NCBI GenBank assembly: GCA_001818495.1
Contig: MHKS01000004.1
Span: 161,235-225,234 of the forward strand
Reading direction: 5' to 3'
DNA from: Candidatus Komeilibacteria bacterium RIFOXYD1_FULL_37_29
GTDB lineage: Bacteria > Patescibacteriota > Patescibacteriia > UBA1558 > GWA2-36-10
Length of the DNA stretch: 64,000 nucleotides
Shown piece after piece: positions 8,282 to 61,873 of the stretch. The translations under genes and the position numbers were made by a program. The notes beneath the pieces were generated by a model. It saw only the letters and a list, made by a program, of their open reading frames with translations, was not told the DNA's origin and searched no databases. Each line of letters opens with the position of its first letter. The stretch's first letter is position 1.

Positions 8282-8363
8282 CTCTTCCACAAAATTTTAA
8301 AAGAGTTTTGGTGTGTTTAGTTAACTTTAGTCTAAGAGCAAGTTTAAAGCAGACTAGCGCTAA

Positions 8364-8382
8364 GGGCTGTTTTTTTGATATA
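8364..8382. repeat. 19-nt direct repeat copy B, here part of the gap promoter (TGATATAAT extended -10)
   Basis: It is identical to 7479-7497 and lies 27-45 nt upstream of the gap ATG. Confidence 0.8.
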
Positions 8383-8408
8383 ATGATAGTAGTAGTTAAT
8401 AAAAAAAT

Positions 8409-28009: not shown

Positions 28010-28034
28010 AATATAATATTATTATGTAATCAAA

Positions 28035-28499: not shown

Positions 28500-28581
28500 A
28501 TGTAAATTATGAAATTTATATATGATCATTGTGATTTAAAAAAAATTGTGGTGACAATATATAAAATAATATTATTTAAAT

Positions 28582-29220
28582 ATGAGAGAATACCTTAACC
28601 TAAAATCAATAAAAGCCGATAAAAAATTACAAGCATTTCTTGCGACTACTCAGAGAGAGTTTAATTCATTTTTTCATTTCAAAATTGTTGAACCGTTGAT
28701 TTTTTTAGTAACAACTCGCCGAGATTTAGATTTGCTGGTCGGTAGGAAAACAGAAAGATGGTTTGTCGGAATGACTAAAAATAATTGTATTTATATATTG
28801 GATAAAAAAAAATTTGCCAAACAATCAAATCATAAAGAGGAAGATTTTTGGCAAACATTAAAACATGAGTACAGTCATATTTATTATACGCAAATAACCA
28901 AAAGTCACTATCCATTTTGGCTAAATGAGGGGCTGGCCTGTCTTCTTTCCGGTAAAAAGCTGGTCCTTAAAAAAGATAGTAAAGATAAACTAGTGAATGT
29001 TTTGTCGTATTTTAATCATAGGGATAGGGATATATATATGGTCGGCCATTACTGGGTAGAGTATTTATTAAAAAATTATGGTAAAAGAAAACTGGTGCAG
29101 TTAATAAAAAATCTAAATTTTAAATCAGAAATAAATAGTCGGCAATTTGTTGATAAATTTTTTAAGATATACGGTTTTAGATTCACCAAAACAAATTTAA
29201 TGAAAATGATAATGTTATAA
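28582..29220 (+). CDS. putative zinc metallopeptidase (gluzincin, Peptidase_MA-like)
   Basis: HEYSH (HExxH) is followed 19 aa later by WLNEGLA (third-ligand Glu), which is the HExxH...E gluzincin arrangement. Confidence 0.5.
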   Translation: MREYLNLKSIKADKKLQAFLATTQREFNSFFHFKIVEPLIFLVTTRRDLDLLVGRKTERWFVGMTKNNCIYILDKKKFAKQSNHKEEDFWQTLKHEYSHIYYTQITKSHYPFWLNEGLACLLSGKKLVLKKDSKDKLVNVLSYFNHRDRDIYMVGHYWVEYLLKNYGKRKLVQLIKNLNFKSEINSRQFVDKFFKIYGFRFTKTNLMKMIML

Positions 29221-29224
29221 ATAG

Positions 29225-29746
29225 ATGAAATTTGTATATGACAAAAAAATAGACAATGAGTGTCATCAGAGAATTAATGCTCGTGATGATATTTTTGGTG
29301 AGAAAATAAAAAAAGACATATATCCTGTTAGTGATGAAATAGTTCAGCAGTTTTCTAATAAATGGACGTCAGAGATAGAAGGGTCTTTTGAAAAGGGGAT
29401 ATTTGAAATATTCAATAAACACATCCCTAAAGATTTTATTTGCTACATTATTTCTAGCCCTTACTCTATGGATATCAAAGAGGGCATAGCTATATCGGCT
29501 TCTTCTTTAGGCGCGATGATAAGAATGATTTGTCATGAGGCCAATCACTATATGTTTCGGCAGAGTAATTATAGAGATAAATATTTTCCGAATATGGATA
29601 TAGAAGACGCCAAGGAAATATTTACTATCGTCAATAATATTTATTTCAAAGATATTATGGAGACGCCAGATAATGGTTGGAAAAAATTTTGGTCGCAGAG
29701 AAAAGGTTTTTTACAGAAATGGCAATCTAATAATTTAAAACAATGA
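29225..29746 (+). CDS. hypothetical protein with an HExxH motif (HEANH), a possible second metallopeptidase-like protein
   Basis: ICHEANHYMF is present. No clear downstream Glu ligand was found. Confidence 0.35.
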   Translation: MKFVYDKKIDNECHQRINARDDIFGEKIKKDIYPVSDEIVQQFSNKWTSEIEGSFEKGIFEIFNKHIPKDFICYIISSPYSMDIKEGIAISASSLGAMIRMICHEANHYMFRQSNYRDKYFPNMDIEDAKEIFTIVNNIYFKDIMETPDNGWKKFWSQRKGFLQKWQSNNLKQ

Positions 29747-30029
29747 ACATTAATTTTAAAAAATTTAATAATAAAGATGTACAGTATTTACTAGTTATGA
29801 TCTTGATATTTTTTTGTTCGATTATCATCACTATTATATGGAGCATGGGGTATGTAGTTTGGTGGTTATTTTCTAAATTAAAATTATATATATTAAAGAA
29901 AAACGATTTTGTGAGTTAATTATCGGTTCATTGACAACAATATCTATCTTTGAATATAAAGATGATGAATAAAAGCGATTTTGGCAGATAACTAGGTTAT
30001 GTTATAATTATTTATAATTAAATAAATTT

Positions 30030-30611
30030 ATGAATAAGAAGATAATAGTGTTATTAAGTGTCTGTATTTTTATATTACTAACTATTTGGGGGTATAATAG
30101 TTTGTATGATTCTGATACTCCAAATAATAATGAAAATATCAATCTTAATAATGCGTCAGATGAAATAGACACTGGTGATTGGGTGGAGTATAGGAATGAA
30201 GCATTAGGGTTTGAATTTAAACATCCGGGTGATTGGATAGTAGAATTAAGAAGAGTAAATTACGGAATACATACTGCAGATGAAGTTTATTTTTATATCA
30301 CAGTAAGTAAAAATAATCCATCAGAGAGTAATCGTTTTTCTAAATTAATAATAACCACTTTTGAAAATATCGAAGGGAAATCTCCGGAAGAAGTGATTTC
30401 TATAAATGAAAATTTTTCTCTTAATGAATTTCAGAGTTTATTTTTAGATGATTTTTTGTTAAATGGAGTGATAGTTAAAAAATATATGATTCCTGGTTTT
30501 ATTTCTTTGCCAGCTGTAATTTTTTATAGTAATGATAAAGTACACCAAATAAAATATAGTCTAGAAGAGGATATGTTTATGGAGATTATGGATACATTTA
30601 AATCTATATAA
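30030..30611 (+). CDS. signal-anchored or secreted hypothetical protein
   Basis: It has an N-terminal hydrophobic segment IIVLLSVCIFILLTIW. No recognisable motifs were found. Confidence 0.5.
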   Translation: MNKKIIVLLSVCIFILLTIWGYNSLYDSDTPNNNENINLNNASDEIDTGDWVEYRNEALGFEFKHPGDWIVELRRVNYGIHTADEVYFYITVSKNNPSESNRFSKLIITTFENIEGKSPEEVISINENFSLNEFQSLFLDDFLLNGVIVKKYMIPGFISLPAVIFYSNDKVHQIKYSLEEDMFMEIMDTFKSI

Positions 30612-30786: not shown

Positions 30787-33700
30787 ATGCAAAAGATCAT
30801 AGTATTTATTGTGGCGTTGATGTTGTTCAACATTAACCTTTTTGCGCAAACCGTTCCAATGGCTGATGGTTTTCAGTTGCCATTATATGAGTATGATATT
30901 AGTGATAATTGTCTTGAGTGGGGCGGTTGGGGGTCTAGTTTTTATGAAGGACAGCGTCATTTAGCAGATGATGAATGTTCTCCGTCTGGAACGGAAGTTT
31001 TCGCATCGGCCAATGGTATTGTTCGTTTCTCTCATAACAATGGGTCTTGCCCTGATAACTGGGGACCTTTGATTGTAATTGAATCAAACACAAACAACGG
31101 TAGTGTCTGTGTTATTTATGGACATGTTGTAAGTGAACCATCAATTATTGAAGGAGGTTCAGTAGTTAGAGGTCAAAAAATTGGGAAAATTGCAGACGGT
31201 ACTGGATGTTGGTCTGATCATATTCATTTTGGTATTTACATAGGAGAATATGGAATGCCCAACGGCGAATATCCTGGCTGGCTTCGTGGTTATTTATTTC
31301 CTGGTGCATGGCCAGGTAATTATGTTGACCCTATATGGTATGTAGAAAATAATCCCCCCAGCTCTTCATCTACCGTTGGTTGTTTTAGCACTAATGACTG
31401 TAGTGGTGCTGTATCATTGTCTTTTCAACAAAAGTATAATGCTATGGCTACTGCGGGGCATCCTTTGGGGAATCCATGGGACAACGGCGGTTCTATCTAT
31501 GTTCATGAAGTAAATGGTATGTATATCCAAGACTTCCAGGATCCTCGTGATCAGGGCGGTCCTAGCAATGGATATTATCATCCATACACTGCACTGATCT
31601 ATGATGCTGCTACTGTTTCTACGGCCAATGTCCGTTTGCTAAAAGAAGGCTTTTGGGATACTTGGATGAATAATACTGGTTGGGTCAATTTTGGCTCACC
31701 GATTACTGACGAGTATTCTAATGGTGGGGAGATTTGGCAAACATTCCGTCGTTATGGTCAAAACTATCCTAGTAATCAGAGTGATTATGAGAATTTCTAT
31801 TTTACGTGGAATTCTAACACTCAATTACTGGAGGTTTTGGACAAAAACTATAATCCGGTGGATTTTTCACAATTGACCGTTACTACTGCTGATATTTTTA
31901 CTAGAGTTTTTAAAAGCGCTAGTTTAAATGATTCAACCTCAAATGAATTTAAGCAGTACAATGGACTGGATTATAGTTTAAGTGATAGTACGGGCGGCGG
32001 ATCACGATTAGTGTCGGATACTAAGATTAGTATTGCTAAGGTGACATCAACTACTACGGAGCCAGAGGGAGTCTATCATTCTGGTTTAATAGTCAGTAAT
32101 CTTGGTCAGCCTTTTCCTTTAATCAATCAGCGTGATTATGATAATTTTTACGCTGTGATTAATGGAACAGTAATACCAATTGATCCATTCACTATGAATG
32201 GTGATATGACTATTTACGTTGGCGGTTCTTCGTCTGGACCGGATATTCAATTTAGTCATTGGACTATTTATCCTAATCCAGGGACGGTTGGTCAGCAGAT
32301 TCATGTGGAAGGACAGATAAATAATCAAGGTTCTTCATCTGTTACTTTATCAGAAGTAAGAGTGGAGTTTTTTGATCCTAATGGTACGGAAATATATCAC
32401 TGGTCTGAGTACAATGTTACTCTAGATCCGGGATATTATTGGTACCAGTGGTTATATTGCTATCCCTACATTTCTGGTAATTATACGGCTCGTTTTCGTG
32501 GGCTCATAAATGGTCAATGGCAAACTTATTCCACACAAACTGTTTATGTTCAGAATAATCCTAATTACCCAGTAGCTGATTTTACTAGTAATCCTTTATC
32601 TGGTCCAGCGCCATTGACTGTTCGGTTTACTGATTTATCAACCAATAACCCCAAACGTTGGCAATGGTTGTTTGGAGACGGTAGCGTCTTGCATGATGTT
32701 CAAAATCCACAACATACTTTTGTCAATCCGGGAACTTATACTGTTGATTTATTGGTATTCAATGATTTTGGAGGCGATCGGATAATAAAAGGAGGATTCA
32801 TAACTGTTTATGAGGCAGTTGTGGCCAACTTTACATCTGATGTCGTTTCTGGATCAGTACCCCTGACTGTCCATTTTACTGATCAGTCAACTGGCAACCC
32901 CACATCCTGGTATTGGGATTTTGGTGATGGCAATGTGTCGTATGACCAGCATCCACTACATACATATGTAGTAGCCGGCATATACTCAGTGTCTTTGACA
33001 GTTGGCAACCAAAATAGTTCAAATGTCAAGGTAGTTTCCAATATGATTACAGTAAAGGAAACGTTTGATCATTGTGCTATAGGGATATTAACAACTAAGG
33101 ATAATGGAGGTGGATGGAGGGGATTTACTATTCGTGGTAATTACGCTTATGTGGCCAATGGATTGCTAGGCTTGCAGATAGTGAACATCAGCAACCCGGT
33201 AGCACCACAGATCATTGGTTCGGTAAATACCCCAGATTATGCTTTCCATGTTTCTATTTTGGATAATTATGCCTATGTATCTGATGGTTCATCAGGCTTG
33301 CAGATAGTGAACATCAGCAACCCGGTAGCACCACAGATCGTTGGTTCGGTGCATCTTCCAGATAGAGTATATGGAGCATCAATTGTTTCTAATTTCATTT
33401 ATGTCTTTGATGCTGGTTCTAGACTCAGTATTTTTGATGCCAGTAATCCAGCATCACCAACTTTGGTCAACTCACTAGTCCTACCGGCCAATGTCACCGG
33501 CATCAGTTTTTATAAAACTTATGCTTATATGACCAATGGCAGTTATGATTTGCGTATTTTTGATATTAGCAACCCGGTAGGGCCAGTTCTTCTTAGCACC
33601 AAGAGCTTACCTGGCTATGCCTCTGATGTTTATGCTGATAGCAATTACGTTTATGTGGCTGCTTATGCGTCTGATTTGCAGATAGTCGATGCCAGCAATC

Positions 33701-34512
33701 CAACATCACCACAACTAATTGGTTCGCTCGATTTATCCTACTATGCTTTGGAAGTTGTGGTTTCCGATGGATATGCTTATGTTGTTAATGTTGATCCGGA
33801 CACTTCTAGTGTTGAGATAATTGACATTAGCAATCCAGCATCACCAGCGCTTGTAGGATCTGTTGGTTCAGCTTATGATCAGATTATGGATATAATTGTA
33901 GAGGATGGTTTGGCTTATATGACAGATTATCAAGGAGGCTTTGCAATTGTGTCGCTTGATTGTGCTTTGCCGGCTTCACCAAACTTCACAGCTACTCCAA
34001 AGTCTGGCTACTCTTCTTTGACTGTTCAATTTGCTGATCAGTCAACGGGTAACCCTACTTCATGGTACTGGGATTTTGGTGATGGCACTACATCGACTCA
34101 GCAAAATCCGCAGCATATCTATAGAGGAGGTGGCAATTGTACGGTTAGTCTTACTGTTAGTGATGGTGATTTTACCAACACCAAAATCATTGACAATTTC
34201 ATTACGATCAAAGTCAAAAACTTTAAAGATGATCGCAAGATGGAATTGTATGCAAACCACCCCAACCCTTTTAATCCTAGTACTACTATTAGTTATTCGT
34301 TGCCAACATCGCAACACGTTAGCCTAGTGGTTTATAACATACTAGGCCAAGCAGTAACTACTCTAGTAGATGGAATGAAAGAAGCAGGGGAACATTCAGC
34401 AATTTGGGATGGTCGTAATGATCATGGCAGTCCAGTTTCTTCGGGAATGTATTTTTACCGACTAACTACTGTTGAGAGTTCAATTGTTCGTAAAATGATC
34501 TTACTAAAATAA
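30787..34512 (+). CDS. large secreted multidomain protein: signal peptide, M23 peptidase domain, Ser/Thr/Gly/Asn-rich region, 2 PKD domains, LVIVD-type beta-propeller repeats, a third PKD domain, and a C-terminal T9SS(Por)-type sorting-domain-like region
   Basis: It has a signal peptide (MQKIIVFIVALMLFNINLFAQT). The M23 motifs HLADDE...GTEVFASANGIV...GQKIGKIADGTG...DHIHFGIY are present. PKD signatures such as FTDQSTGNPTSWYWDFGDG occur three times. GLQIVNISNPVAPQI-type LVIVD repeats are present. The C-terminus HPNPFNPSTTISYSLP...VSLVVYNILGQAVTTLVDG...AGEHSAIWDGRNDHG..VSSGMYFYRL matches the T9SS type-A sorting-domain pattern. An RBS AAAGGAG sits 8 nt upstream. Confidence 0.8.
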   Translation: MQKIIVFIVALMLFNINLFAQTVPMADGFQLPLYEYDISDNCLEWGGWGSSFYEGQRHLADDECSPSGTEVFASANGIVRFSHNNGSCPDNWGPLIVIESNTNNGSVCVIYGHVVSEPSIIEGGSVVRGQKIGKIADGTGCWSDHIHFGIYIGEYGMPNGEYPGWLRGYLFPGAWPGNYVDPIWYVENNPPSSSSTVGCFSTNDCSGAVSLSFQQKYNAMATAGHPLGNPWDNGGSIYVHEVNGMYIQDFQDPRDQGGPSNGYYHPYTALIYDAATVSTANVRLLKEGFWDTWMNNTGWVNFGSPITDEYSNGGEIWQTFRRYGQNYPSNQSDYENFYFTWNSNTQLLEVLDKNYNPVDFSQLTVTTADIFTRVFKSASLNDSTSNEFKQYNGLDYSLSDSTGGGSRLVSDTKISIAKVTSTTTEPEGVYHSGLIVSNLGQPFPLINQRDYDNFYAVINGTVIPIDPFTMNGDMTIYVGGSSSGPDIQFSHWTIYPNPGTVGQQIHVEGQINNQGSSSVTLSEVRVEFFDPNGTEIYHWSEYNVTLDPGYYWYQWLYCYPYISGNYTARFRGLINGQWQTYSTQTVYVQNNPNYPVADFTSNPLSGPAPLTVRFTDLSTNNPKRWQWLFGDGSVLHDVQNPQHTFVNPGTYTVDLLVFNDFGGDRIIKGGFITVYEAVVANFTSDVVSGSVPLTVHFTDQSTGNPTSWYWDFGDGNVSYDQHPLHTYVVAGIYSVSLTVGNQNSSNVKVVSNMITVKETFDHCAIGILTTKDNGGGWRGFTIRGNYAYVANGLLGLQIVNISNPVAPQIIGSVNTPDYAFHVSILDNYAYVSDGSSGLQIVNISNPVAPQIVGSVHLPDRVYGASIVSNFIYVFDAGSRLSIFDASNPASPTLVNSLVLPANVTGISFYKTYAYMTNGSYDLRIFDISNPVGPVLLSTKSLPGYASDVYADSNYVYVAAYASDLQIVDASNPTSPQLIGSLDLSYYALEVVVSDGYAYVVNVDPDTSSVEIIDISNPASPALVGSVGSAYDQIMDIIVEDGLAYMTDYQGGFAIVSLDCALPASPNFTATPKSGYSSLTVQFADQSTGNPTSWYWDFGDGTTSTQQNPQHIYRGGGNCTVSLTVSDGDFTNTKIIDNFITIKVKNFKDDRKMELYANHPNPFNPSTTISYSLPTSQHVSLVVYNILGQAVTTLVDGMKEAGEHSAIWDGRNDHGSPVSSGMYFYRLTTVESSIVRKMILLK
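33168..33350 (+). repeat. 57-bp direct repeat (33168-33224 and 33294-33350, one mismatch) inside the large gene, corresponding to adjacent LVIVD repeats
   Basis: aggcttgcagatagtgaacatcagcaacccggtagcaccacagatc(a/g)ttggttcggt occurs twice, 126 bp apart. Confidence 0.85.
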
Positions 34513-37877: not shown

Positions 37878-39443
37878 ATGTCAAATATAAAAAAAAGAAA
37901 TTTACCTTTGTTTTTGTTGATTTTGGACGGCTGGGGGATTTGGAAAGAAAAAAAAGGCAATGCCATTGCCCTGGCCAAGACGCCAGTGATCAACGGACTT
38001 TATAAAAAATATCCGCATACTTTACTGCAAGCGTCAGCCAAGTTTGTGGGCCTACCTAGCGGTCAGCCAGGAAATTCCGAAGCTGGCCACATGAATATTG
38101 GTGCTGGTCGAGTAGTCGAGCAAGATGCTGTTATTATTTCCAAAAGCATCAACAACGGCACATTTTTTAAAAATCCAGCATTTTTGCAAGCGGCTCGCCA
38201 CGCCAGTGACAATAATTCCAATATCCACCTGATGGGGCTTTTATCAGATGGCTCCAGTCCACACTCCGACATTGATCATCTATTGTCTCTGATTACTTTT
38301 TTTACCAGTCGGACTAAACAAAAAATCTATTTGCATCTTTTTACTGATGGGCGTGATTCACCACCCTTTGCCGCTTTGAAAATTCTTAGTCAATATAAAT
38401 CTGTTTTTAATTCTAATCGGGTTAGTGTGGCGACCATCATGGGTCGGTTTTATGCCATGGATAGAAAAAAATCTTGGGCTAGAACCAAACAAGCTTTTGG
38501 TGCTTTGGTTATGGGTAAAGGTTATCTGATTAAATCAGCTACGGAGGCAGTGGAGCGGGCTTATAATCGAGGGGAAAGTGATGAGTTTATAAAACCATCA
38601 GTGGTGGTCCATAAAAATAAAAAACCAGTCGGAGCAGTACAGAGTAATGATACTATGGTATTTTTCAATTTGCGATCTGATCGCGCCCGGCAGCTGACCA
38701 AAGTTTTTGCTCAAAATGATTTTACCAAAAAAAATAAGGGAGCCTTTTCTTTGGGCCGCAAAATAACCAATTTATTGTTTGTGGCTTTGACTGATTTTGG
38801 TCCGGATTTGGAAGGCGTTTTGACAGCTTATCCGGGTATGGATGTGTCCGATACATTACCGATAGCTTTGCGCGGTTTACGTCAATGCTATATTGCCGAA
38901 ACCGAAAAATACGCCCATGTTACTTACTTTTTAAACGGTGGTTATGATCATCCAGTGGCCAATGAAGATTGGGTCAATATTCCTTCCAAAGATGTAGACT
39001 CTTATGCTGATCAGCCGGAGATGAGTACCAATGAGCTCACCAAAAGAGTCTTGGGTGATTTAAAAGATAATCCTTATGATTTTGTTCTGATGAATTTTGC
39101 GGCGCCTGATATGGTGGGGCACACTGGTAATCTTAAAGCGGGTATTAAAGCAGTGGAAATAGTTGATAAGGCGGTTGGTCAAATTATTGAGGCAGTGTTG
39201 GCTAAAAAAGGCACGATCATTATCACCGCTGATCATGGTAATATCGAAGAAATGATTAATCTTTCTACTGATGAGATTGATACTGAACACTCTATCAATC
39301 CAGTACCTTTTATTGTTATCAATCACCGTAGTTATAAATTGAAAAAAAATGGTAAATTATCCAATATTGCACCAACTATTTTAGATATTTTTGGTATTCA
39401 AAAACCAAAACTCATGAATGAAAAATCTTTAATTGTTAAATAA
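37878..39443 (+). CDS. gpmI: 2,3-bisphosphoglycerate-independent phosphoglycerate mutase (copy 1)
   Basis: LLILDGWGI, the GNSEAGHMNIGAGR catalytic-Ser motif and C-terminal ITADHGN are present. Confidence 0.85.
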   Translation: MSNIKKRNLPLFLLILDGWGIWKEKKGNAIALAKTPVINGLYKKYPHTLLQASAKFVGLPSGQPGNSEAGHMNIGAGRVVEQDAVIISKSINNGTFFKNPAFLQAARHASDNNSNIHLMGLLSDGSSPHSDIDHLLSLITFFTSRTKQKIYLHLFTDGRDSPPFAALKILSQYKSVFNSNRVSVATIMGRFYAMDRKKSWARTKQAFGALVMGKGYLIKSATEAVERAYNRGESDEFIKPSVVVHKNKKPVGAVQSNDTMVFFNLRSDRARQLTKVFAQNDFTKKNKGAFSLGRKITNLLFVALTDFGPDLEGVLTAYPGMDVSDTLPIALRGLRQCYIAETEKYAHVTYFLNGGYDHPVANEDWVNIPSKDVDSYADQPEMSTNELTKRVLGDLKDNPYDFVLMNFAAPDMVGHTGNLKAGIKAVEIVDKAVGQIIEAVLAKKGTIIITADHGNIEEMINLSTDEIDTEHSINPVPFIVINHRSYKLKKNGKLSNIAPTILDIFGIQKPKLMNEKSLIVK

Positions 39444-39467: not shown

Positions 39468-41045
39468 ATGAAAAGACCACGTCCAGTTGTACTCATTATT
39501 TTAGATGGTTTCGGTATTGCACCGCCTTCTCGGGCCAATGCTATTTCTTTGGCTAAGACGCCAAATTTTGATAAATATTCTCAAAATTATCCGATTATGC
39601 CGATAGCGGCTAGTGGTGAAGCAGTGGGACTTTCTTGGGGAGAAATGGGCAATTCTCAAGTCGGGCATCTTTCTTTGGGTTCGGGTGTTATCCCTTATCA
39701 AAATTTGCCTCGCCTTAGTAAGGCGATTGTCGATGGAGAATTTTATCAAAACGAAGCTTTTTTAAAGGCTTGTCAAAATGTTAAAAAAGGTGGCGGAGCT
39801 TTACATTTGATTGGTTTGGTCAGTTCTGGTGGTATTCATAGTTACAATGAACATCTCTATGCTTTGATAGATTTGGCTCATCAGCAAAAAATAACCAAGG
39901 TCTATGTTCATGCCTTTTTAGACGGACGAGATACACCATATAATAGTGGCATTAATTTTATTAGTAAACTTCAAGAGAAATTGAAAAATGTTGGTGTCGG
40001 TACTATTGCTAGTTTGAGTGGTCGTTTTTGGGCTATGGACAGAGACAATCGCTGGGATAGAATTGAGAAAGCTTGGCGCGTCATGGTGGACGGTCAGTCT
40101 GATGAGAAGTTTGAAGATCCACTAGTAGCTATTCAAAAATCTTATGACAAAAAAGTTTACGATGAGGAATTTAATCCCACAATAATTACCAATGATCTTG
40201 GTCAGCCACGAGGAACTATTAAAGACGGGGATAGTGTCATATTTTTTAACTTTCGTTCTGATAGGGCCCGGCAGTTGACCCAAGCGCTCACTTTGCCTGG
40301 CTTTGAAAAGTTTAAAAGAGCTTATTTTAAAAATCTTTTTATGGTCACTATGACCCAATATGAAAAAGATTTGCCGGTCGCTGTGGCTTTTCCGCCGTTA
40401 GATATTGCTATGCCACTAGCTCGGGTTTTGTCGGAAGCCGGATTAAAGCAGTTCCATATCGCCGAAACCGAAAAGTATGCGCACGTTACTTATTTTTTTA
40501 ACGGTGGTAAAGAAACTGTCTATGAAGGCGAGGACAGGGTCCTGGTGCCATCACCCCAGGTTACTTCTTATGATCAAAAGCCGGCTATGTCCGCTCGCGA
40601 ACTGGCTTCCAAAATTAACCAAGCGATCAAAGAGAGTCAATATGATTTTATTGTAGTCAATTTTGCCAATCCCGATATGGTAGGACATACTGGCAATATG
40701 CAAGCCACTATTGAAGCTATTGAAATATTGGATCAGTTGGTTGGAGAAATAGTTGATACTATCCTGTCTTATGGCGGAGTAGCTTTGATTACAGCTGATC
40801 ATGGTAATGCTGAAAAACTTTATGATCTGCAGAGCGGAGAAATCAATAAAGAGCATTCCAACAATCCAGTACCTTTTTTTATTGTAGGCGATGAATATGC
40901 TGGTAAAAGCGTCTTGGCTGGAAATATTGGTACGGAATTAAGCCATGTGACTCCAGTGGGAGTTTTGGCCGATGTACCACCAACCATACTAAAAATTATG
41001 GGAATAAAAAAACCACCAGAGATGACGGGCAGTTCTTTGATTTAA
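39468..41045 (+). CDS. gpmI: 2,3-bisphosphoglycerate-independent phosphoglycerate mutase (copy 2, divergent tandem paralogue)
   Basis: LIILDGFGI, GNSQVGHLSLGSG and ITADHGNAEKL are present. The two copies share the motif skeleton but differ widely elsewhere. Confidence 0.85.
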   Translation: MKRPRPVVLIILDGFGIAPPSRANAISLAKTPNFDKYSQNYPIMPIAASGEAVGLSWGEMGNSQVGHLSLGSGVIPYQNLPRLSKAIVDGEFYQNEAFLKACQNVKKGGGALHLIGLVSSGGIHSYNEHLYALIDLAHQQKITKVYVHAFLDGRDTPYNSGINFISKLQEKLKNVGVGTIASLSGRFWAMDRDNRWDRIEKAWRVMVDGQSDEKFEDPLVAIQKSYDKKVYDEEFNPTIITNDLGQPRGTIKDGDSVIFFNFRSDRARQLTQALTLPGFEKFKRAYFKNLFMVTMTQYEKDLPVAVAFPPLDIAMPLARVLSEAGLKQFHIAETEKYAHVTYFFNGGKETVYEGEDRVLVPSPQVTSYDQKPAMSARELASKINQAIKESQYDFIVVNFANPDMVGHTGNMQATIEAIEILDQLVGEIVDTILSYGGVALITADHGNAEKLYDLQSGEINKEHSNNPVPFFIVGDEYAGKSVLAGNIGTELSHVTPVGVLADVPPTILKIMGIKKPPEMTGSSLI

Positions 41046-44361: not shown

Positions 44362-44396
44362 AATAAGCGGGTGCTGTGAAAGGCACCCGCTTTTTT
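44362..44396. terminator. bidirectional rho-independent terminator between mltG (+) and the LysM gene (-)
   Basis: aaGCGGGTGCtgtgaaagGCACCCGCtttttt is an 8-bp stem with an A-rich stretch before and a T-run after. Confidence 0.8.
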
Positions 44397-44425
44397 GCGA
44401 TCATTGGTGATCGCTTAGAGGGGGA

Positions 44426-45664
44426 CTAGTCTACCAGTCCGCCGGCATTGTCCTGCTTATGAGCAGGGGTAGTGGGCGTGGTGGGTGGGCCAGCATTGAT
44501 CAGCGAAAGGTTTTCCGCGTCAGTTCCTGCTTTGAGCGGATCTTTTTCGCAGACTTGTCCGATGACCTGCATCTTGTCGCCGACTTCGACGACTACTTGA
44601 CCACCGATCAATGACAGTCGAGCCAGAGTTCCGAAATCAGAGACGTCGATTATTCTCGCCTGTCCGTCATCGTGAGGCAGGAGAACAAATCGATTCGGGG
44701 ATGTTATACGAACTTCCCGGTACGGCTGAGCGTCAGCCGACATAGTCACTTTTTCCAGAGCATTTTTCACTGACTCTTCTTCTGTGACCACCGGCCACAC
44801 CTGCTGGTTGACTTCAACCACTTTCATGTCCTGCCGTGGTCTGATCTGATCCTTAGAAAGAGGAGTCATACCATGGCCGCCGCGGACATCATTGCCACAG
44901 CGCATCAAAGAGAGATAGAAAGACCCGCCATCATCGAGGAAACACTGCCAGGCTGGTGTCCAATCTGGGATATTTTTTTCCACCGGATTATTGGATTCGC
45001 CGTAGCAGATTAGCATCGGGCCTTTGACATCGACGGCTACGATACGAGTAATATGAACCAGGGGCGGCATGAATCGTGTTTCCTGAACACTCATAGCGAG
45101 TCGCTCGTTTTCATACATATTCGTAAAGTAAGCCACAGCAGCTTCGACTGTTGGCAGTCCGCCTTCCACTCGATCGGGACCATAGTAGGGGTCCTCGACC
45201 TTGCGTCGGTTGTCATTGTCGCGTTTGGCTCTTTCTAAGCCAAATTTGTACATCACCCATGCAACGGCCACCAGCAATAGCCCGATGAGCCAGTCGGCCA
45301 TTTTGTCTGCTGGCAGATCAGCATAAACAACCTTTGGCACACGAACCGTATCAGTTTTAGTGGTGGCCAGATTGTGGCCACCAATCATAAACCGAAACAG
45401 TCGGAGCATAGAGGGAGGGACGTTCAACCTGTCGCCAGGTCTGATTAAATCAGCATCATCAAGTTGAGGATTAAATCTAACCAGTTCCTGCCACAAGGTC
45501 GGATCGCTGAACGCTATTCCCCACTGACCGACTCGGTCGTCATTGTCCACGATGTAATCGTAGGACCCGTCAGCCTGCTCAATGAGCTGGCCTTTCGGAG
45601 TCTGGGCACCGCAGAGGCTGACCGTCGTGATCAGTAGTAACATAACGTACCAAATACGTAGCAT
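44426..45664 (-). CDS. LysM-domain membrane protein, compositionally foreign (G+C-rich)
   Basis: It has an N-terminal signal-like segment. A LysM-like motif YIVDNDDRVGQWGIAF...LVRFNPQLDDADLIRPGDRLNVP is followed by a TM helix ADWLIGLLLVAVAWVMY and about 270 aa of unknown domain. Sampled stretches are about half G+C, against roughly one third to two fifths elsewhere (by eye). Confidence 0.6.
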   Translation of the reverse strand: MLRIWYVMLLLITTVSLCGAQTPKGQLIEQADGSYDYIVDNDDRVGQWGIAFSDPTLWQELVRFNPQLDDADLIRPGDRLNVPPSMLRLFRFMIGGHNLATTKTDTVRVPKVVYADLPADKMADWLIGLLLVAVAWVMYKFGLERAKRDNDNRRKVEDPYYGPDRVEGGLPTVEAAVAYFTNMYENERLAMSVQETRFMPPLVHITRIVAVDVKGPMLICYGESNNPVEKNIPDWTPAWQCFLDDGGSFYLSLMRCGNDVRGGHGMTPLSKDQIRPRQDMKVVEVNQQVWPVVTEEESVKNALEKVTMSADAQPYREVRITSPNRFVLLPHDDGQARIIDVSDFGTLARLSLIGGQVVVEVGDKMQVIGQVCEKDPLKAGTDAENLSLINAGPPTTPTTPAHKQDNAGGLVD

Positions 45665-45735
45665 TAGCTACCTCCATTAAATTAAACAGTTTCAACTACA
45701 GTTATCTGTAGCTGGGAGACAGGCGATTTTGTTGT

Positions 45736-45786
45736 TTTTCGCTTCTCCCCCAAATACCACCAAAATACTTAGGGGAAAAGCGAAAA
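45736..45786. repeat. 15-bp inverted repeat (TTTTCGCTTCTCCCC / GGGGAAAAGCGAAAA, 1 mismatch) with a 21-nt spacer in the divergent intergenic region of the G+C-rich island
   Basis: Seen directly in the sequence. It could be an operator or an element-end remnant. Confidence 0.7.
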
Positions 45787-45943
45787 GTAGACTACTTTTT
45801 AAGGAGCATTTAATATAGAATAGTGCCATATTTTATTATTTTTGTCAATGATTATAGGGTGGTTATAATTGACAAAATATTGATTTTATGATATAATAGA
45901 GTAATTGATTGAGAAATAGTAAATTATTGAAAATTTTAATAGA

Positions 45944-46648
45944 TTGGAGCAAATCATGTTCTTTGGCAACAGAATTTTTGGCTGCTTGATTTTTATTGGC
46001 CTATTCATCATTCTGGTCACTGATCTTCAAGCCGGTGTCAGACATCGTGGTAACGTTTTCAATTGGGGTACTGATTGGCAGCCTCCACGGGCAGAAGCTC
46101 GACTCAATGTGGAAAATGATCTTTCCCCACTGCTTCATTCTCGTATTCAAGGGGTCTGCTATGACCTTTTGGAGGCAAAAGATAAACCTTTTTATCTTTA
46201 TTGGGGCCTGGGTTTCCGGCGTGGAAATCTGATGCTGGAGCCAGCTATTGGTTGGTCCTTTAGAGATAAGGAGTTAGTCGGAGCCTTTCGGCTCTATCCC
46301 CAGTGGAAAGATTGGTTTGGATACTCCAATGTGGAGTATCAATTTGAGACTAGGTCTTTCTACTATCTAGCCCAACTGGGCAAGAAATTTAACCCATTCT
46401 TTGAAATGGGGATGGAAATAGAGGGTTGGGGAGATATCGACGACAATCTCCAAAGTAACGGTTTAGGCGTGAATTTTGCCTTCAATTTGCAGGGGCTAAA
46501 AAGATTTAAAGCCCAAGAATCAAAGTTGCGAGTAGAGGCAGCTATTCAGTACCGTGAGCTGGATAGCCAGTGGAAACCACAGGCTGTAGTAAGATTGATT
46601 CTGACCCCCAAGATAGATCAACACACCCCGTCTCATCGGAGGGACTAA
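45944..46648 (+). CDS. hypothetical secreted or membrane beta-rich protein (G+C-rich; possibly beta-barrel-like)
   Basis: It has an N-terminal hydrophobic segment FGCLIFIGLFIILVTDLQA. Alternating hydrophobic and aromatic patterns (NVEYQFETRSFYYLAQL, LGVNFAFNL, VVRLILTP) are present. A TTGTCA-17-TATAAT promoter lies upstream inside an 8-bp inverted repeat. Confidence 0.45.
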   Translation: MEQIMFFGNRIFGCLIFIGLFIILVTDLQAGVRHRGNVFNWGTDWQPPRAEARLNVENDLSPLLHSRIQGVCYDLLEAKDKPFYLYWGLGFRRGNLMLEPAIGWSFRDKELVGAFRLYPQWKDWFGYSNVEYQFETRSFYYLAQLGKKFNPFFEMGMEIEGWGDIDDNLQSNGLGVNFAFNLQGLKRFKAQESKLRVEAAIQYRELDSQWKPQAVVRLILTPKIDQHTPSHRRD

Positions 46649-46655
46649 AGTCAAA

Positions 46656-46706
46656 AGAGCCCGTTGGGCTACTGTCATAAACAGTAGTTTCGGCGGGCTT
46701 TTCTCT
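46656..46706 (+). terminator. nested stem-loop terminator after the island gene
   Basis: It has an outer stem AGAGCCCG/CGGGCTtT enclosing an inner stem CTACTGT-cataa-ACAGTAG, followed by TTTTCTCTT. Confidence 0.5.
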
Positions 46707-46734
46707 TGACAATATTATATTTTTCCTATATACT
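46706..46734 (+). promoter_or_regulatory. sigma70-type promoter for rplJ-rplL (TTGACA, 17-nt spacer, TATACT)
   Basis: Read directly from the sequence. It lies about 140 nt upstream of rplJ. Confidence 0.55.
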
Positions 46735-46744
46735 ATTTTTAGAA

Positions 46745-46876
46745 ATTAAATATAGATAGCCGTAGACAGTGGGTTTTGAGCTAGAATTAGCTCAAATTAA
46801 AGATCCTACCGAGGTGAAAAAGATAAATTTTTCAATGTCTGCGCTATTTACGCAGATTTTTTAATTAATAAAAATT
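46745..46876 (+). promoter_or_regulatory. rplJ 5' leader with L10-leader-like hairpins and an intrinsic attenuator directly before the start codon
   Basis: It contains a hairpin GAGCTAgaatTAGCTC (46778-46793) and a hairpin TCTGCGctatttaCGCAGA plus TTTTTT (46838-46862), 15 nt before the ATG. L10(L12)4 autoregulation of rplJL via a leader structure is established knowledge. Confidence 0.5.
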
Positions 46877-47401
46877 ATGCCAAAAAGTAAAATACAAAAA
46901 CAAGAGGCCTTAAAATCTCTAGAGGAAAAGCTCAAAGACAGCAAGGCAGTAGTTTTTAGTTCTGATACTGGTTCCAATGTTAAGACCATTGAATCATTAC
47001 GCAAAGAATTAAAAGCTAATAATGCCGAATATTTGGTAGTCAAGAAGACCCTGCTTAAAAAAGCTATCAAAGATATGGGTGAGACCGACCAATTGGATCA
47101 ATTGGCTGGTTCTGTAGCTTTGACCTTGTCTTATCAAGACGAAGTCTCTGCTGCTAAAATTTTAAATAAGTATGCCAAGGACAGCGAAACTTTGAAGATG
47201 GCTGGCGGTATTTTAGAAAAAAGTTTTATTATGCCAGAAATGGTCAAACGTTTGGCCACTTTGCCTTCTCGAGAAGAGCTGTTGACCAAGTTGGTTGGCT
47301 CGCTAAATAGTTCCATTAGTGGTTTGGTCAGAGTTTTAGCTGGTACAACACGCAATTTTGTCGGAGTACTAAGGGCTATCAAAGATAGTAAGAATAATTA
47401 A
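46877..47401 (+). CDS. rplJ: 50S ribosomal protein L10
   Basis: Its sequence and its position before rplL fit L10. Confidence 0.9.
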   Translation: MPKSKIQKQEALKSLEEKLKDSKAVVFSSDTGSNVKTIESLRKELKANNAEYLVVKKTLLKKAIKDMGETDQLDQLAGSVALTLSYQDEVSAAKILNKYAKDSETLKMAGGILEKSFIMPEMVKRLATLPSREELLTKLVGSLNSSISGLVRVLAGTTRNFVGVLRAIKDSKNN

Positions 47402-47439
47402 TCAATTTATATAATAATATTTAAGAAAGGATAAATAAT

Positions 47440-47841
47440 ATGTCAGAAGAAAAAAAGGACGTAAAAGTTCCCGCCAAATTCAAGAGTTTGGTAGAAGAAG
47501 TTGAAAAAATGTCTGTTTTAGATCTTTCCGAATTAGTGGCTATTTTGGAAGATAAGTTTGGTGTCAGTGCCGCTGCTCCAGTAGCAATGGCCATGGCTCC
47601 AGCCGCTGGTCAAGCCGCTGCTGAAGAGAAAACTTCTTTCAGTGTTGAGCTTACCGCCGCAGGTGATAACAAAATTGGTGTTATCAAAGCTATTCGCGAA
47701 ATTACTCAACTTGGCTTAAAAGAAGCCAAAGACATGGCTGATGGTGCTCCAGTTAATATCAAAGAAGGAGTAGCCAAAGCCGAAGCCGAGGATATGAAGA
47801 AAAAGATGGAAGCCGCCGGTGCTAAAGTAACTTTGAAATAA
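47440..47841 (+). CDS. rplL: 50S ribosomal protein L7/L12
   Basis: It has an Ala-rich hinge and the C-terminal domain [27 protein letters not shown]...[16 protein letters not shown]. Confidence 0.95.
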
Positions 47842-47859: not shown

Positions 47860-47893
47860 AAATCCCCTTACTAAATCAGTGGGGGATTTTTTT
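47860..47893. terminator. bidirectional rho-independent terminator after rplL, overlapping the stop of the convergent gene
   Basis: aAAATCCCCttactaaatcagtGGGGATTTttttatt is an 8-bp stem flanked by an A-run and a T-run. Confidence 0.75.
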
Positions 47894-50006
47894 ATTCGTT
47901 GATAGCTAAGAGGTAGAGGTGTTGGTTGTTGAGAAGATAAATGGCTTTTTCTTCTGGGTCAACTGCCAAGTCTTTTAAGGCATCAAATTTTTGACTGGCA
48001 TACTGATCTTTGATGTTGCCATCTTTGTCTAAGATAATCACTCGATAATTACCTGGATCAATGATGTATAGATAATTGGAGTCTCTAAAGGTTTTAATAA
48101 TTGCTCCTGAGCCGATAATTGGCCGAGGAACATGATAATCAAAGGGCTCTAGCGATCCTTTTAGGAAATTTTGGATTTTGCCGTCATTGGCTATTAGATA
48201 AACACTGCCATCAATAGTAATACTGGAAGCTTGGGAAGTGTCTACTTCTTTTTTGAGCCAGGGTTGTCCGTTGGCAAAACCATTGCCACTTTCGGGGTAT
48301 TTGAAGATCTGATTATTTTTGTCATCTAGGACATATAAGTTATTGCCATAAATGACCAAATCTTTAACCGAAGTATTACTGCTATTTTGTTTTAAATCAC
48401 CGATAATTTGTTTTTTGTCTAAATCAAAAATAATATAGCTTATTTCATTGGTGGCGCTTAAAGTACTGACTACCACACGGTTTTTTTCCGGCCAATCAGT
48501 CATGGAATTGGCCACTTGTCCGCCGGCAAAGTTAAATATTTCTTCTAGTAGATCATCGGTTATTTTATAAAGTTTATTGTCGGCTAGTATATAAAATATA
48601 CCTTCTTTTTGTACTATATCTTGAGAATTGGTGATGTTGGCGCTCATGTCAAATTTTTCCAAAGGAGAGGGGACCACATTGATGTGGCGGACATCATTTA
48701 TCTTGTGGAAAAGTGTTTCAGATAATTTATCAATCTGGGTTTGTTGATCTGGTGAGCTGGGAACCATTTGGGCTATGAGTCCTTCAATTTCTAGCAAAAT
48801 ATTTTCAGCTGCTTGCTCATCATTGTAGATCAATTTAGCATCGACTTCTTGATATTTGGTTTCTATATCTACCAGTAGTTTATTGAAATTTTCATTTTTG
48901 GTATCATCAGCTTTTTCTTGGGTCAAAAATACCAAGCTTTGCAAAAATATCAGGATAACTACAAAGAGCATAATGATACCGATTTTCTTTTTGGTGCTTA
49001 AATTTTGAAACCAAAAATATTTTTGATTGGTGATTTCCTTGATATTATCAATAGTTTTTTCTTCTTTGTTTTTTCTAAATTTTGTAGAGAACACAAAGAG
49101 CCAAGCAAACTTTATTTTTTTGCCGATCAAGGAAAACATAGACCAGAGAGTCTTAAAATATAATGCGGTGAGAGAAAGTATAGAACTAGTTTTTTTGATT
49201 ACGCCTACATTTTTAAGACCACCCAGATCTACTACGGTTTTGGTGCGGGGGAGACTACTATGGTAATTTTGATCGGGCAGTGGTTTGATAGTGTCTTTTA
49301 TTTCCAAATCATCGCGGTCAATCGGTTTTTTGATTTCTCCGGGGGTCAGCTCCCTATCAGTAATGGCCGATTTTTTAATAATCAAGGAGTTGAAGGTTAC
49401 AAAATCTGGCACAGTTTCCAAAAGCTCGTTGATTTTTATGGCAGCGGCTGATGGTGAATATTGGCCGGTCAGCTGTTTTATTTTTTCTTTGGAAATGTAG
49501 TCAAACAAAGATTCAGTCGAAACAATCAAAGCATCTCCGTCGTCTAGCTCGCCACTGATTATATCGGAAAATATTTTATGGGGATTGATATTGCTGTTTT
49601 TGGACATGATAGTAGTCAGTTGTTTACTATGTATCAAGAGTCCACGGATATTTCCAATACCGGCCATAAAGACATTGTTATTGTAGATAATGCCAACGCT
49701 TAAATCCAGAGTATTAATCCAATTGGGTATTTTGACCGCTGAGCTCATTTCCGGCAAAAGCTGGTTGATTTGCTGGAGTAGCTCTTCTAGTAGTGTTTCG
49801 GGGTTTTCCTGATGGCTAGTATCAAAATAAGTGGCCACTTCATTGATTAGTTGGTCGATATAGGGTTGTTGGTCTATTTTTTGTTTGGGTAATTCTAGGA
49901 TAATAAATAAGCGACCATGATCAGAGGAGTCGCTGGTATATACTTCAGAAAGCTCCCGAGCGTTGATATGGTCGTGAGTAAAGATTTTGTGGTATTTTAA
50001 GCCCAT
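47892..50006 (-). CDS. membrane protein: N-terminal cytoplasmic PP2C-like (SpoIIE/PP2C_2-like, possibly inactive) domain, one TM helix, C-terminal extracytoplasmic beta-propeller-like repeats
   Basis: The N-domain pattern RLFIILE...NNVFMAGIGNIRGLLIHSKQLT...LDDGDALIVSTESLFDYIS resembles PP2C motif spacing but without the canonical metal-binding DG.GG motif. The TM segment is IGIIMLFVVILIFLQSLVFL. The C-terminal YxxD/LYxxD repeats suggest a propeller. Confidence 0.5.
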   Translation of the reverse strand: MGLKYHKIFTHDHINARELSEVYTSDSSDHGRLFIILELPKQKIDQQPYIDQLINEVATYFDTSHQENPETLLEELLQQINQLLPEMSSAVKIPNWINTLDLSVGIIYNNNVFMAGIGNIRGLLIHSKQLTTIMSKNSNINPHKIFSDIISGELDDGDALIVSTESLFDYISKEKIKQLTGQYSPSAAAIKINELLETVPDFVTFNSLIIKKSAITDRELTPGEIKKPIDRDDLEIKDTIKPLPDQNYHSSLPRTKTVVDLGGLKNVGVIKKTSSILSLTALYFKTLWSMFSLIGKKIKFAWLFVFSTKFRKNKEEKTIDNIKEITNQKYFWFQNLSTKKKIGIIMLFVVILIFLQSLVFLTQEKADDTKNENFNKLLVDIETKYQEVDAKLIYNDEQAAENILLEIEGLIAQMVPSSPDQQTQIDKLSETLFHKINDVRHINVVPSPLEKFDMSANITNSQDIVQKEGIFYILADNKLYKITDDLLEEIFNFAGGQVANSMTDWPEKNRVVVSTLSATNEISYIIFDLDKKQIIGDLKQNSSNTSVKDLVIYGNNLYVLDDKNNQIFKYPESGNGFANGQPWLKKEVDTSQASSITIDGSVYLIANDGKIQNFLKGSLEPFDYHVPRPIIGSGAIIKTFRDSNYLYIIDPGNYRVIILDKDGNIKDQYASQKFDALKDLAVDPEEKAIYLLNNQHLYLLAINE

Positions 50007-61174: not shown

Positions 61175-61873
61175 CTATATATTTCTAATTTTATCTATCA
61201 ATGTCTGGACTCTTATGCTAGTTTCTTTATAAGACATTACTTGTTCTTCTGTTTCTTCATTTCTATGTTTTATGGTTTCAAACATTTCATCATAAGATTG
61301 TTCTATTAAATCTATTTCATGTATGGGTATTATTGTAGAGTATAGTGAATCAAGATCTGTCTGAATACTTTCTTCAGCAGTAATAAACATTGATTGCATT
61401 TGTATAGTATTTGTGTGAAATTTTTTTCTTAGTTGTTTAGTACCATCTACTGATAATTTTATTTGGTTAGTAGGAGATAATCTATAAAGTTCAGAAAATT
61501 TTGATTCTAGTTCATCAATTGTCATATCAAATAGAAATTCTATCCTCATCAGTTCTCCCTTAGTTAATTCAAAGAATTTTTTTACTCTTTCTTTCATTTG
61601 AGCAATTTTTTCTTTTTTTTCTCTAGCTTCTGTTGATAATTCCATTTCAAATTTATTTTCCGGAGGGATAATTGATTCGTCGGGAGTTTTTAGACGGTCA
61701 TCAATATTATCAGTTATTTCTCCGTGTTCTTCGGAACCACCTTCATTTTTATCATGCTTTGATTGAGTATAGTTTTCATTTTTTTCTAAACTACAATCAG
61801 GGCCGTGATTTGGGAGCTCACGGTAACATTCTTGACAAATATTTTCAGGTATTAATTTACTTTCGTTAATCAT
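61175..61873 (-). CDS. acidic hypothetical protein with N-terminal Cys cluster (CQECYRELPNHGPDC), immediately upstream of dnaB
   Basis: It is an ORF only and is very A+T-rich relative to dnaB. Confidence 0.45.
   Translation of the reverse strand: MINESKLIPENICQECYRELPNHGPDCSLEKNENYTQSKHDKNEGGSEEHGEITDNIDDRLKTPDESIIPPENKFEMELSTEAREKKEKIAQMKERVKKFFELTKGELMRIEFLFDMTIDELESKFSELYRLSPTNQIKLSVDGTKQLRKKFHTNTIQMQSMFITAEESIQTDLDSLYSTIIPIHEIDLIEQSYDEMFETIKHRNEETEEQVMSYKETSIRVQTLIDKIRNI

Follow-up and report, generated by a model that had tools for sequence, protein, structure and literature searches.

The amelioration framework for horizontally acquired islets of atypical base composition is reportedly that of Lawrence and Ochman, and in the enterobacterial O-antigen and capsule loci, which are AT-rich and occupy a fixed chromosomal site, a persistently atypical composition is attributed to whole-allele exchange between lineages. 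Here we describe a divergent gene pair, genes A and B, that resembles both kinds of system in part. It occupies positions 44397-46706, between mltG and rplJ, of a 64-kb stretch (the window; contig MHKS01000004.1) of the AT-rich groundwater genome of Candidatus Komeilibacteria bacterium RIFOXYD1_FULL_37_29, a patescibacterium (Candidate Phyla Radiation, CPR). Like horizontally acquired islets the cassette has an atypical G+C content (GC) and codon usage, is inserted between core genes and carries its own promoters and terminators; unlike them it has no mobility genes, tRNA target or flanking repeats, is syntenic throughout its clade and has a composition at equilibrium and not in decay, and its GC excess accompanies gene A to other genomes and loci. 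With the O-antigen and capsule loci it shares the placement of envelope genes in a conserved slot between core genes and a composition that is persistently atypical across relatives, but genes A and B are GC-rich, co-diverge with their flanks and show no sign of exchange. It is best filed as a lineage-specific envelope-gene cassette in a variable slot, unusual for an equilibrium composition far from that of its genome together with hyper-structured mRNAs, for a candidate new family of leader that would sequester the Shine–Dalgarno (SD) sequence, and for a predicted beta-barrel in a phylum presumed to have a single membrane.

Taken as a whole, the account that we find rather probable is that of an old single insertion, inherited vertically since, whose GC content is actively maintained through selection on structured mRNA, with gene A gated by its leader and gene B encoding a barrel. 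On this account a self-contained two-gene envelope cassette was inserted once, long ago, before the members of a small clade of Komeilibacteria-like Patescibacteria diverged, and has been passed on vertically, gene A being lost at least twice later. A strong sigma-70-type promoter and an intrinsic terminator for each gene insulate the cassette from the mltG and rplJ operons, selection favouring mRNAs that are unusually stable and highly structured would most probably have left its compositional trace in the high GC, and the leader would hold translation of gene A off until some trigger opens it.

Anatomy and composition of the cassette

The features of the cassette and of its right-hand border are as follows (coordinates are those of the window; aa, amino acids; nt, nucleotides; GC3, GC at third codon positions).

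44365-44392, both strands: bidirectional intrinsic terminator common to mltG/yceG (+) and gene A (−), with a 10-11 bp GC-rich stem and T-runs on both sides
44426-45664, − strand: gene A, 412 aa, GC 51.7%, GC3 0.54
45657-45797, − strand: conserved structured 5' leader of gene A, about 150 nt, downstream of the gene A promoter
45820-45848, − strand: gene A promoter, with −35 box TTGACA (45848-45843), 17-nt spacer and extended −10 element TGG-CACTAT (45828-45820)
45869-45897, + strand: gene B promoter, TTGACA-17-TG-n-TATAAT, with 12/12 consensus matches and an extended −10 element
45956-46648, + strand: gene B, 230 aa, GC 45.2%, GC3 0.455
46650-46705, + strand: intrinsic terminator of gene B, a compound hairpin followed by a U-tract, free energy −33.8 kcal/mol, z-score −7.4
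46706-46734, + strand: rplJ promoter, TTGACA-17-TATACT, the right-hand border of the insertion
46742-46871, + strand: ribosomal protein L10 leader (Rfam RF00557), upstream of rplJ, 57.1 bits against a gathering score of 44

The two genes are divergent open reading frames (ORFs) in a program-made list and had been judged GC-rich by eye in a preliminary description of the sequence. Computation bears this out: the segment has 46.9% GC against 36.1% for the window (gene A 51.7%, gene B 45.1-45.2%), while 1239-nt windows placed outside it reach at most 42.9%. Genes A and B rank first and second in GC3 (0.542, z +3.7, and 0.455, z +2.3) among the 46 ORFs of at least 180 aa, the next value below being 0.395. 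The tetranucleotide deviation that had been proposed as a check places the segment among the top five 2-kb windows by tetranucleotide distance, a position it shares with other windows and so does not hold uniquely. The excess is found at all three codon positions and in C- and G-ending codons alike, and is even along the length of both genes. The stretch between the ORFs (45665-45943, 279 nt, in the bounds first given) has 29% GC. Those bounds put the start of gene B at a TTG at 45944, but ATG 45956 is the most likely start because a GGAG (45946-45949) lies six bases upstream of it and because it is the start chosen in other assemblies. Exact copies of the gene A product are present in the NCBI metagenome-assembled genome (MAG) GCA_036736165.1 and in several aquifer metagenomes, and as both cassette junctions are identical in six independent assemblies of the window's species the segment is not an assembly artefact or chimera.

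The bracketing terminators of the preliminary description are both present, the left-hand hairpin (44365-44392) folding with z −5.0 on the + strand and −6.0 on the − strand. The compound hairpin of gene B is directly followed by UUUUCUCUU and adjoins the −35 box of rplJ, whose promoter and leader had also been recognized correctly. Less of the earlier reading of the intergenic region holds. Inverted repeats do exist there, but as a 21-nt repeat (45736-45786) and a 13-nt repeat (45840-45877), the latter being the back-to-back −35 boxes of the two divergent promoters. TTGTCA-N-TATAAT, whose spacer is 16 nt here and not the 17 nt described, was rejected as a conserved promoter, since its spacing varies by 0-47 nt among relatives, as does the distance between the two divergent −35 boxes. 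The gene B promoter is kept in all lineages, including those that have B without A, and the gene A −10 element reads TGG-TATCAT in relatives (alignment of five lineages). The intergenic region is more conserved in nucleotide sequence than proteins A and B themselves are, and an Rfam scan of it gave sub-threshold chance matches only.

Origin of the cassette and maintenance of its composition

Related loci (numbered L001 onwards) were searched for with the B alignment, and a scan of metagenome contigs anchored on L10 gave 80 loci (L023-L102) picked regardless of A or B. In independent lineages the same neighbourhood recurs: iPGM–DUF212–BacA–NTP_transferase–YceG/MltG, gene A (reversed), gene B, rplJ, rplL and a 700-aa gene (reversed). 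Both genes are present in L001, L004 (= L017, L020; Candidatus Komeilibacteria), L013, L015 and L018 (= L026), and B alone follows mltG in L019, L021/L022 and L023/L024/L025. The preliminary description had allowed that conservation of the same genes at this locus across the lineage would tell against a horizontally acquired insertion, and such conservation is what we find, the cassette being located at this one site in each of the eight distinct lineages sampled, which together form a single monophyletic clade. Its suggestion that the segment lies where rplK and rplA would normally precede rplJ is not upheld: tblastn with the E. coli proteins L11 and L1 found no gene for either in the window, and neither rplK nor rplA precedes rplJ in any of the 80 L10-anchored loci.

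Relatives with an empty site, which had been suggested as a check, do exist. In the nearest outgroups (L029, L030 and L031; L10 58-63% identical) rplJ begins 160-190 nt after the mltG stop codon, and the more distant L057, L092 and L098 likewise have mltG and then rplJ with no cassette. The gap in these lineages holds only the rplJ promoter and leader, and alignment to the window shows that the cassette fits precisely into the space separating the stop codon of mltG from the −35 box of rplJ. As mltG directly adjoins the rplJ promoter in the outgroups, the cassette is an insertion, and to this extent the earlier proposal stands, in deep time; a recent date for it is contradicted by clade-wide synteny, by co-divergence with the flanks and by the balanced substitution fluxes described below. 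A neighbour-joining tree of five flank proteins unites all B-bearing lineages in one clade (100% bootstrap), within which the B-only lineages are nested separately, L024 as sister to L004 (100%) and L019 as sister to the pair made up of the window and L001 (96%). Read parsimoniously, this means that the A+B cassette was gained once and that A was subsequently lost at least twice.

Synonymous divergence tells the same history. Identity at 4-fold degenerate sites between the window and L001 is 0.48 for A, 0.51 for B and 0.50 for the flanks; between L013 and L018 it is 0.85, 0.71 and 0.70, respectively; and in deep pairs it is about 0.27-0.45 for A/B and 0.39-0.45 for the flanks, chance being about 0.3. 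Because A/B identity equals that of the flanks pair by pair, the cassette has co-diverged with its flanks, with the deep splits near saturation, and A identities rank in the order of the flank tree. The proteins have evolved faster than their neighbours (identity 40-68% against 52-93% for the flanks). No flanking repeats, integrase or nearby tRNA were found at the cassette, the only tRNAs of the window lying at 56.8 and 62.2 kb, and IMG/VR holds no relative of protein A or B. A viral origin of the pair was rejected on this ground and because BFVD gives only local LysM matches for A.

From the saturation of the flanks, decay would by now have left each lineage with about 0.41 of the ancestral GC3 deviation from the host, so that the ancestral GC3 needed to account for present values is 1.1-1.4 for L004, L013 and L018, which is impossible, and 0.64-0.85 for the window and L001. 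In every lineage GC3 of A/B is 0.40-0.71 against 0.16-0.38 for the flanks, and the hosts richest in AT are those whose copies are richest in GC. When synonymous changes in A+B are polarised, the counts (GC-to-AT:AT-to-GC) are 22:19, 26:24 and 25:30, and 34:24 and 43:20 for the window/L001 pair; this balance is a conservative result, as the bias expected of parsimony is towards too many GC-to-AT changes in GC-rich genes. The equilibrium GC3 that such changes imply is 0.52-0.70 for A/B and 0.27-0.41 for the flanks. Weakly constrained codons are GC-rich too (GC3 0.41-0.72 in A/B against 0.20-0.44 in flank genes), so the force acts at the nucleotide level. It is also gene-specific and not regional, since the genes that lie between B and rplJ in some lineages, an HD gene (L004/L020) and a 105-aa gene (L021), have host-like GC; other genes found in the mltG–rplJ gap (L032, L042 and L053) are unrelated and host-like as well. 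Members of the A family in unrelated genomic contexts of other Patescibacteria exceed their neighbours in all four cases: GC is 0.58 for A against a mean of 0.43 for neighbouring genes in L104, 0.60 against 0.48 in L005, 0.65 against 0.56 in L012 and 0.68 against 0.58 in L103 (Kerfeldbacteria). Over hosts of 0.30-0.58 GC, A thus stays at 0.51-0.68. The high GC of A and B is a maintained property of the genes and not the fading mark of a transfer. These genes have been inherited vertically through near-saturating synonymous divergence and yet stand 15-25 GC points above their genome (10-45 points in GC3), which makes them a counter-example to the routine reading of atypical GC as recent horizontal transfer.

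Three local causes of the excess were considered and set aside. Overlapping or antisense coding was rejected because opposite-strand ORFs are at most 61 aa long and 4-fold sites diverge as freely as those of the flanks, codon bias of highly expressed genes because the adjacent rplJ and rplL have host-like GC3, and gene conversion from a paralog because the window contains none. In the B-only lineage of L023 and L024, the sister of L004, B is shorter (209 aa; L024 5972-6601) and has a GC3 of 0.40, lower than the 0.57 of L004 but still far above the 0.16 of the host; this may reflect relaxation after the loss of A, yet B in the B-only L019 keeps 0.57.

The cause that we tentatively put first is selection for stable, structured mRNA, for which the case is clearest in A and weaker in B. 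Minimum free energies per 120 nt average −33 to −50 kcal/mol in A/B and about −15 to −31 kcal/mol in flank genes of the AT-rich syntenic genomes. Against synonymous-codon shuffles, which preserve both protein and codon usage, A/B show a mean z of −3.7 (n = 11, range −1.1 to −5.9) and 53 other genes a mean of −1.2 (standard deviation 1.3; Mann–Whitney P = 1.7e-5). Under a stricter null in which codons are shuffled only inside blocks of 40, A keeps z values of −2.2 to −7.8 in 6/6 lineages, including the non-syntenic L103 and L104, while B gives −1.6 to −3.6 and controls +0.85 to −2.4. This excess over shuffles is predicted by neither transfer nor gene conversion, which is why we favour selection on structure. 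If such selection does hold genes this far from their genome, island callers based on composition will mislabel them.

Several points weigh against this account. The polarised-substitution test rests on parsimony with a nearly saturated outgroup. Excess structure is not exclusive to A/B: in some lineages z values of −3 to −5 are also seen for L10, L12 and a small number of other genes. The B copy of L019 has a z of just −1.1, and B is weaker than A under the block-shuffle null. Synonymous shuffling disturbs the dinucleotide context, giving a background shift of about −1.2 in all genes, and structure selection alone does not account for the raised GC at first and second codon positions. In the rplJ and rplL coding regions (window 46877-47841, + strand) strong values are seen for rplJ of the window (z −5.3) and rplL of L001 (z −3.4), as well as in L004, and not in L018 or L019.

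The main rival is GC-biased gene conversion, in which the locus, and A wherever it is placed, would recombine with unusual frequency, diversifying selection on surface proteins being one conceivable reason, and GC-biased repair during recombination would then keep all three codon positions rich in GC. Enrichment at all three codon positions and in weakly constrained codons, the faster evolution of the A/B proteins and substitution fluxes balanced at high GC, as a fixation bias would give, all fit it, and bacterial examples of the process, with raised GC3 in recombining genes, have been documented (PMC4450053). On the other hand gene conversion does not predict mRNA structure beyond that of synonymous shuffles, it would have to be gene-specific as the low-GC HD and 105-aa genes adjoin B, and synonymous divergence equal to that of the flanks gives no sign of exchange between lineages. 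We know of no shift reported for bacterial gene conversion as large as the GC3 gap of A/B, which amounts to 20-45 points, and count this against it as well. Contigs of the same species are essentially identical (clonal) and so uninformative about gene conversion at the population level. On balance we regard this rival as unlikely. That the cassette came by ancient transfer from a very GC-rich donor and has not yet ameliorated appears improbable: the cassette is an insertion relative to the outgroups, and in the subclade of the window and L001 simple decay allows an ancestral GC3 of 0.64-0.85 and GC-to-AT changes somewhat exceed the reverse (34:24, 43:20), but L004, L013 and L018 would need the impossible ancestral values given above and their fluxes are balanced. 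Nor would such a transfer leave the most GC-rich copies in the most AT-rich hosts, promoters, leader and intergenic region as AT-rich as the host (29% GC), and A richer in GC than its neighbours in unrelated genomes too.

Exchange of a different kind, the recurrent import of GC-rich cassette alleles from GC-richer Patescibacteria by recombination across the mltG and rplJ flanks, would be in keeping with the variability of the mltG–rplJ gap, which holds lineage-specific genes across the wider group, with a GC-rich PHA_gran_rgn gene in L013 that its close relative L018 lacks, and with the existence of GC-rich A homologs in other Patescibacteria. It is nevertheless distinctly improbable, as no pair, not even the closest, departs from the flanks in its A/B synonymous divergence, the ranking of A identities follows the flank tree and no donor pool is visible, B having no homolog outside the clade among 5.8 billion clusters and 185,579 GTDB species genomes. 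Least credible of all, and in our view hardly tenable, is a recently acquired island or an assembly chimera. The atypical GC, the bracketing terminators and the position beside a core operon would suit an island, and composition and codon usage are indeed those expected of one, whereas a patchy distribution, mobility signatures and amelioration are not seen: the cassette is kept in all eight distinct lineages of one clade with synonymous divergence saturated, there is no integrase, tRNA, direct repeat or viral homolog, and the junctions are the same in six independent assemblies.

The mltG–rplJ gap is a variable slot more generally. Among the 80 L10-anchored loci mltG/yceG is the usual upstream neighbour of rplJ, and the gap contains four tandem paralogous genes of about 210 aa and an 84-aa ORF in L032 and 4-5 kb of genes in L042/L053. 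In L013 a 100-aa PHA_gran_rgn (PF09650) gene (8735-9037, + strand; GC 0.54, GC3 0.63) overlaps the B stop codon. L018 has no such gene, whose gain or loss within the cassette is recent.

The gene A leader and the two envelope proteins

Leaders that sequester the SD sequence include RNA thermometers, the expression platforms of riboswitches and ribosomal-protein leaders, among them the adjacent L10 leader (RF00557). The leader of gene A resembles them in being a covarying 5' untranslated region with anti-SD/SD pairing and a stem at the start codon, and differs from them in having no Rfam match, in a long, near-invariant 20-bp hairpin of its own with a GGGGAG and in being tied to a single protein family. 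This hairpin, P1 (45736-45786), is followed by an anti-SD UCUCC (45715-45719) that pairs with the SD sequence GGAGG (45671-45675) and so encloses a second hairpin, P2 (45693-45714), which covaries; a short stem covers the start codon of gene A (45662-45664). In the leader alignment 98.7% of pair cells are canonical, compared with 45-52% when the partners are slid, and compensatory changes occur in five pairs, where the slid controls have 0-3; the observed values are matched by 0/500 shuffles. Folding of the single sequence by minimum free energy gives the same structure (−54.4 kcal/mol, z −7.2). With its helices recoded, this architecture is recovered by a covariance model 5' of the non-syntenic A homologs in L104 (44 bits), L005 (32 bits) and L103 (24 bits), but there was no convincing match in L012; TTGACA promoters lie upstream of the leader in L103 and L104 too. 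With six close sequences and three distant ones, the support for conservation of the leader is moderate. The pairing suggests that the leader probably gates translation of gene A through SD sequestration and occlusion of the start codon, with the GGGGAG on the 3' side of P1 as a possible competitor for the anti-SD. The leader is a candidate new family of cis-regulatory RNA not in Rfam.

It should be noted that in L005 the leader model puts the start AUG (7841) in a reading frame other than that of the called gene (8001-9110), which is without the signal peptide and half of the LysM domain; a frameshift or assembly error in that MAG is probably responsible.

Protein A consists of a signal peptide, a LysM module (about residues 26-84), a transmembrane (TM) helix (about 124-146) whose C-terminal flank is strongly basic, a charged linker that varies, a C-terminal domain (about 159-375) and a low-complexity tail. 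The family comprises some 25-30 representatives at 50% identity, all named members being Patescibacteria, and across 28 of them P159, P163, G169, A176, G215, C256, N258 and P291 are invariant. The LysM module of the preliminary description, and with it the possible binding of peptidoglycan, is confirmed at the level of profiles, although the window protein alone scores 16.1 bits against Pfam LysM (PF01476), below the gathering threshold of 20.9. Of the 28 family members 7 match at E < 0.01, a PDB profile search matches the sequence profile of A to SafA (E 7.5e-11) and TsaP (E 2.4e-9), and the profile also matches hundreds of multi-repeat proteins that are Pfam LysM. The structure model, of only moderate quality (pLDDT 65), shows a LysM fold, and a fold search of BFVD returned local LysM matches only (probability 0.93-0.97). 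The C-terminal domain stands apart: a PDB fold search gave nothing below E 0.04 for it, profile searches with the 28-member alignment found no Pfam or PDB relative beyond LysM, and BFVD held none; PHROGs, NCBIfam and PADLOC yielded nothing useful for the protein. In its N-terminal module A is like the LysM envelope proteins SafA (7r1l), the secretin-associated TsaP (6ve2_O, 3jc8) and Kbp (7pvc), with E values of 7.5e-11 to 1.8e-4; unlike them it has a single LysM followed by the TM helix and a conserved domain of about 220 aa without relatives, which is predicted to be cytoplasmic. The layout suggests a bitopic membrane protein with a peptidoglycan-binding LysM outside and a novel conserved domain inside. 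The 283-aa neighbours of A homologs in L012 and L005 have no Pfam match.

The second protein had been described as beta-barrel-like, and modelling agrees. Protein B has a signal peptide with predicted cleavage near LQA/G, and a hydrophobic N-terminus ending in AQAG or LQAG is kept in the family (by eye). Its AlphaFold model (pTM 0.74, 73 residues with pLDDT of at least 90) shows, by DSSP, 11 consecutive antiparallel strands after the signal peptide, and residues 23-44, which are of low confidence, might form a twelfth. All the Foldseek matches listed with E < 0.02 are membrane beta-barrels, the best superposition being on the 12-stranded porin KdgM (target-normalised TM-score 0.59; root mean square deviation 3.7 Å). 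Every strand, across the family, shows dyad alternation, one face being nearly uncharged and aromatic-rich (0-8% charged in 10 of the 11 strands and 17% in the other; up to 47% aromatic) and the opposite face up to 67% charged, a pattern that is also compatible with a soluble barrel having an apolar core. To KdgM/NanC-type porins (4pr7, 4fqe) and other outer-membrane protein barrels (the COG4313 channel, VDAC/Tom40) B is thus alike in its signal peptide, its meander of antiparallel strands of 9-13 residues with short turns and its strict alternation with an aromatic-rich, uncharged face. It is unlike them in lacking sequence similarity to any outer-membrane protein family, in the 11 strands detected, in the absence of an aromatic beta-signal from its C-terminus (...LTPKIDQHTPSHRRD, with a hydrophilic HTPSHRRD tail) and in belonging to a phylum proposed to have no outer membrane (PMC12102498, PMC8871954), which is what makes a porin-like protein unexpected here. 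No sequence match was found in Pfam, PHROG, NCBIfam, PADLOC or PDB. The protein is an orphan, with 13 clusters among 5.8 billion and occurrences in 2/185,579 GTDB species genomes, both of them clade members, and a profile search for remote homologs added just five close relatives.

Protein B is accordingly predicted to be a secreted orphan that folds as a small porin-like beta-barrel, and it may be inserted in a membrane. That the model was built on eight sequences and that the number of strands detected is odd both tell against the prediction. B may be a soluble barrel; the alternative is insertion into a lipid layer of some kind, which might belong to a host cell. A more elaborate proposal, in which B is a genuine membrane-inserted porin of an outer lipid layer of the clade's own, or of a host outer membrane where it would serve as a nutrient conduit, with the LysM protein A anchoring the contact, the mRNAs hyper-structured and the leader gating A, we consider doubtful; if true, a porin-like B would bear on how tiny episymbionts build their envelope or tap their hosts.

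Elsewhere in the window a 1241-aa protein (30787-34512, + strand) combines a Peptidase_M23 domain, LVIVD repeats and PKD domains with a C-terminal Por_Secre_tail/CHU_C domain, the sorting signal of type IX secretion, which scores just above threshold (30.3 against 27 bits). Such a domain is odd here, since neither a type IX system nor an outer membrane is known from the phylum. Its region is among the strongest tetranucleotide outliers of the window.

Other features of the window and its relatives

Downstream of the cassette a protein of about 700 aa (47892-50006, − strand) is encoded convergently after rplL. No credible Pfam match was found for it, and relatives, down to 21-35% identity, follow rplL in most of the 80 L10-anchored loci, so that rplJ–rplL–reversed 700-aa gene is a widely kept order in place of the canonical rplJL–rpoBC. 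Very AT-rich patches at 18549-19797, 27260-30611 and 61175-61873 (ORF GC 0.23-0.29, GC3 0.15-0.27; an acyltransferase is among their ORFs) form the opposite compositional outlier to A and B. Upstream of the cassette lie two tandem paralogous iPGM/Metalloenzyme genes (cofactor-independent phosphoglycerate mutase; 37878-39443 and 39468-41045, + strand), which are about 41% identical in relatives and are kept as a pair across the clade.

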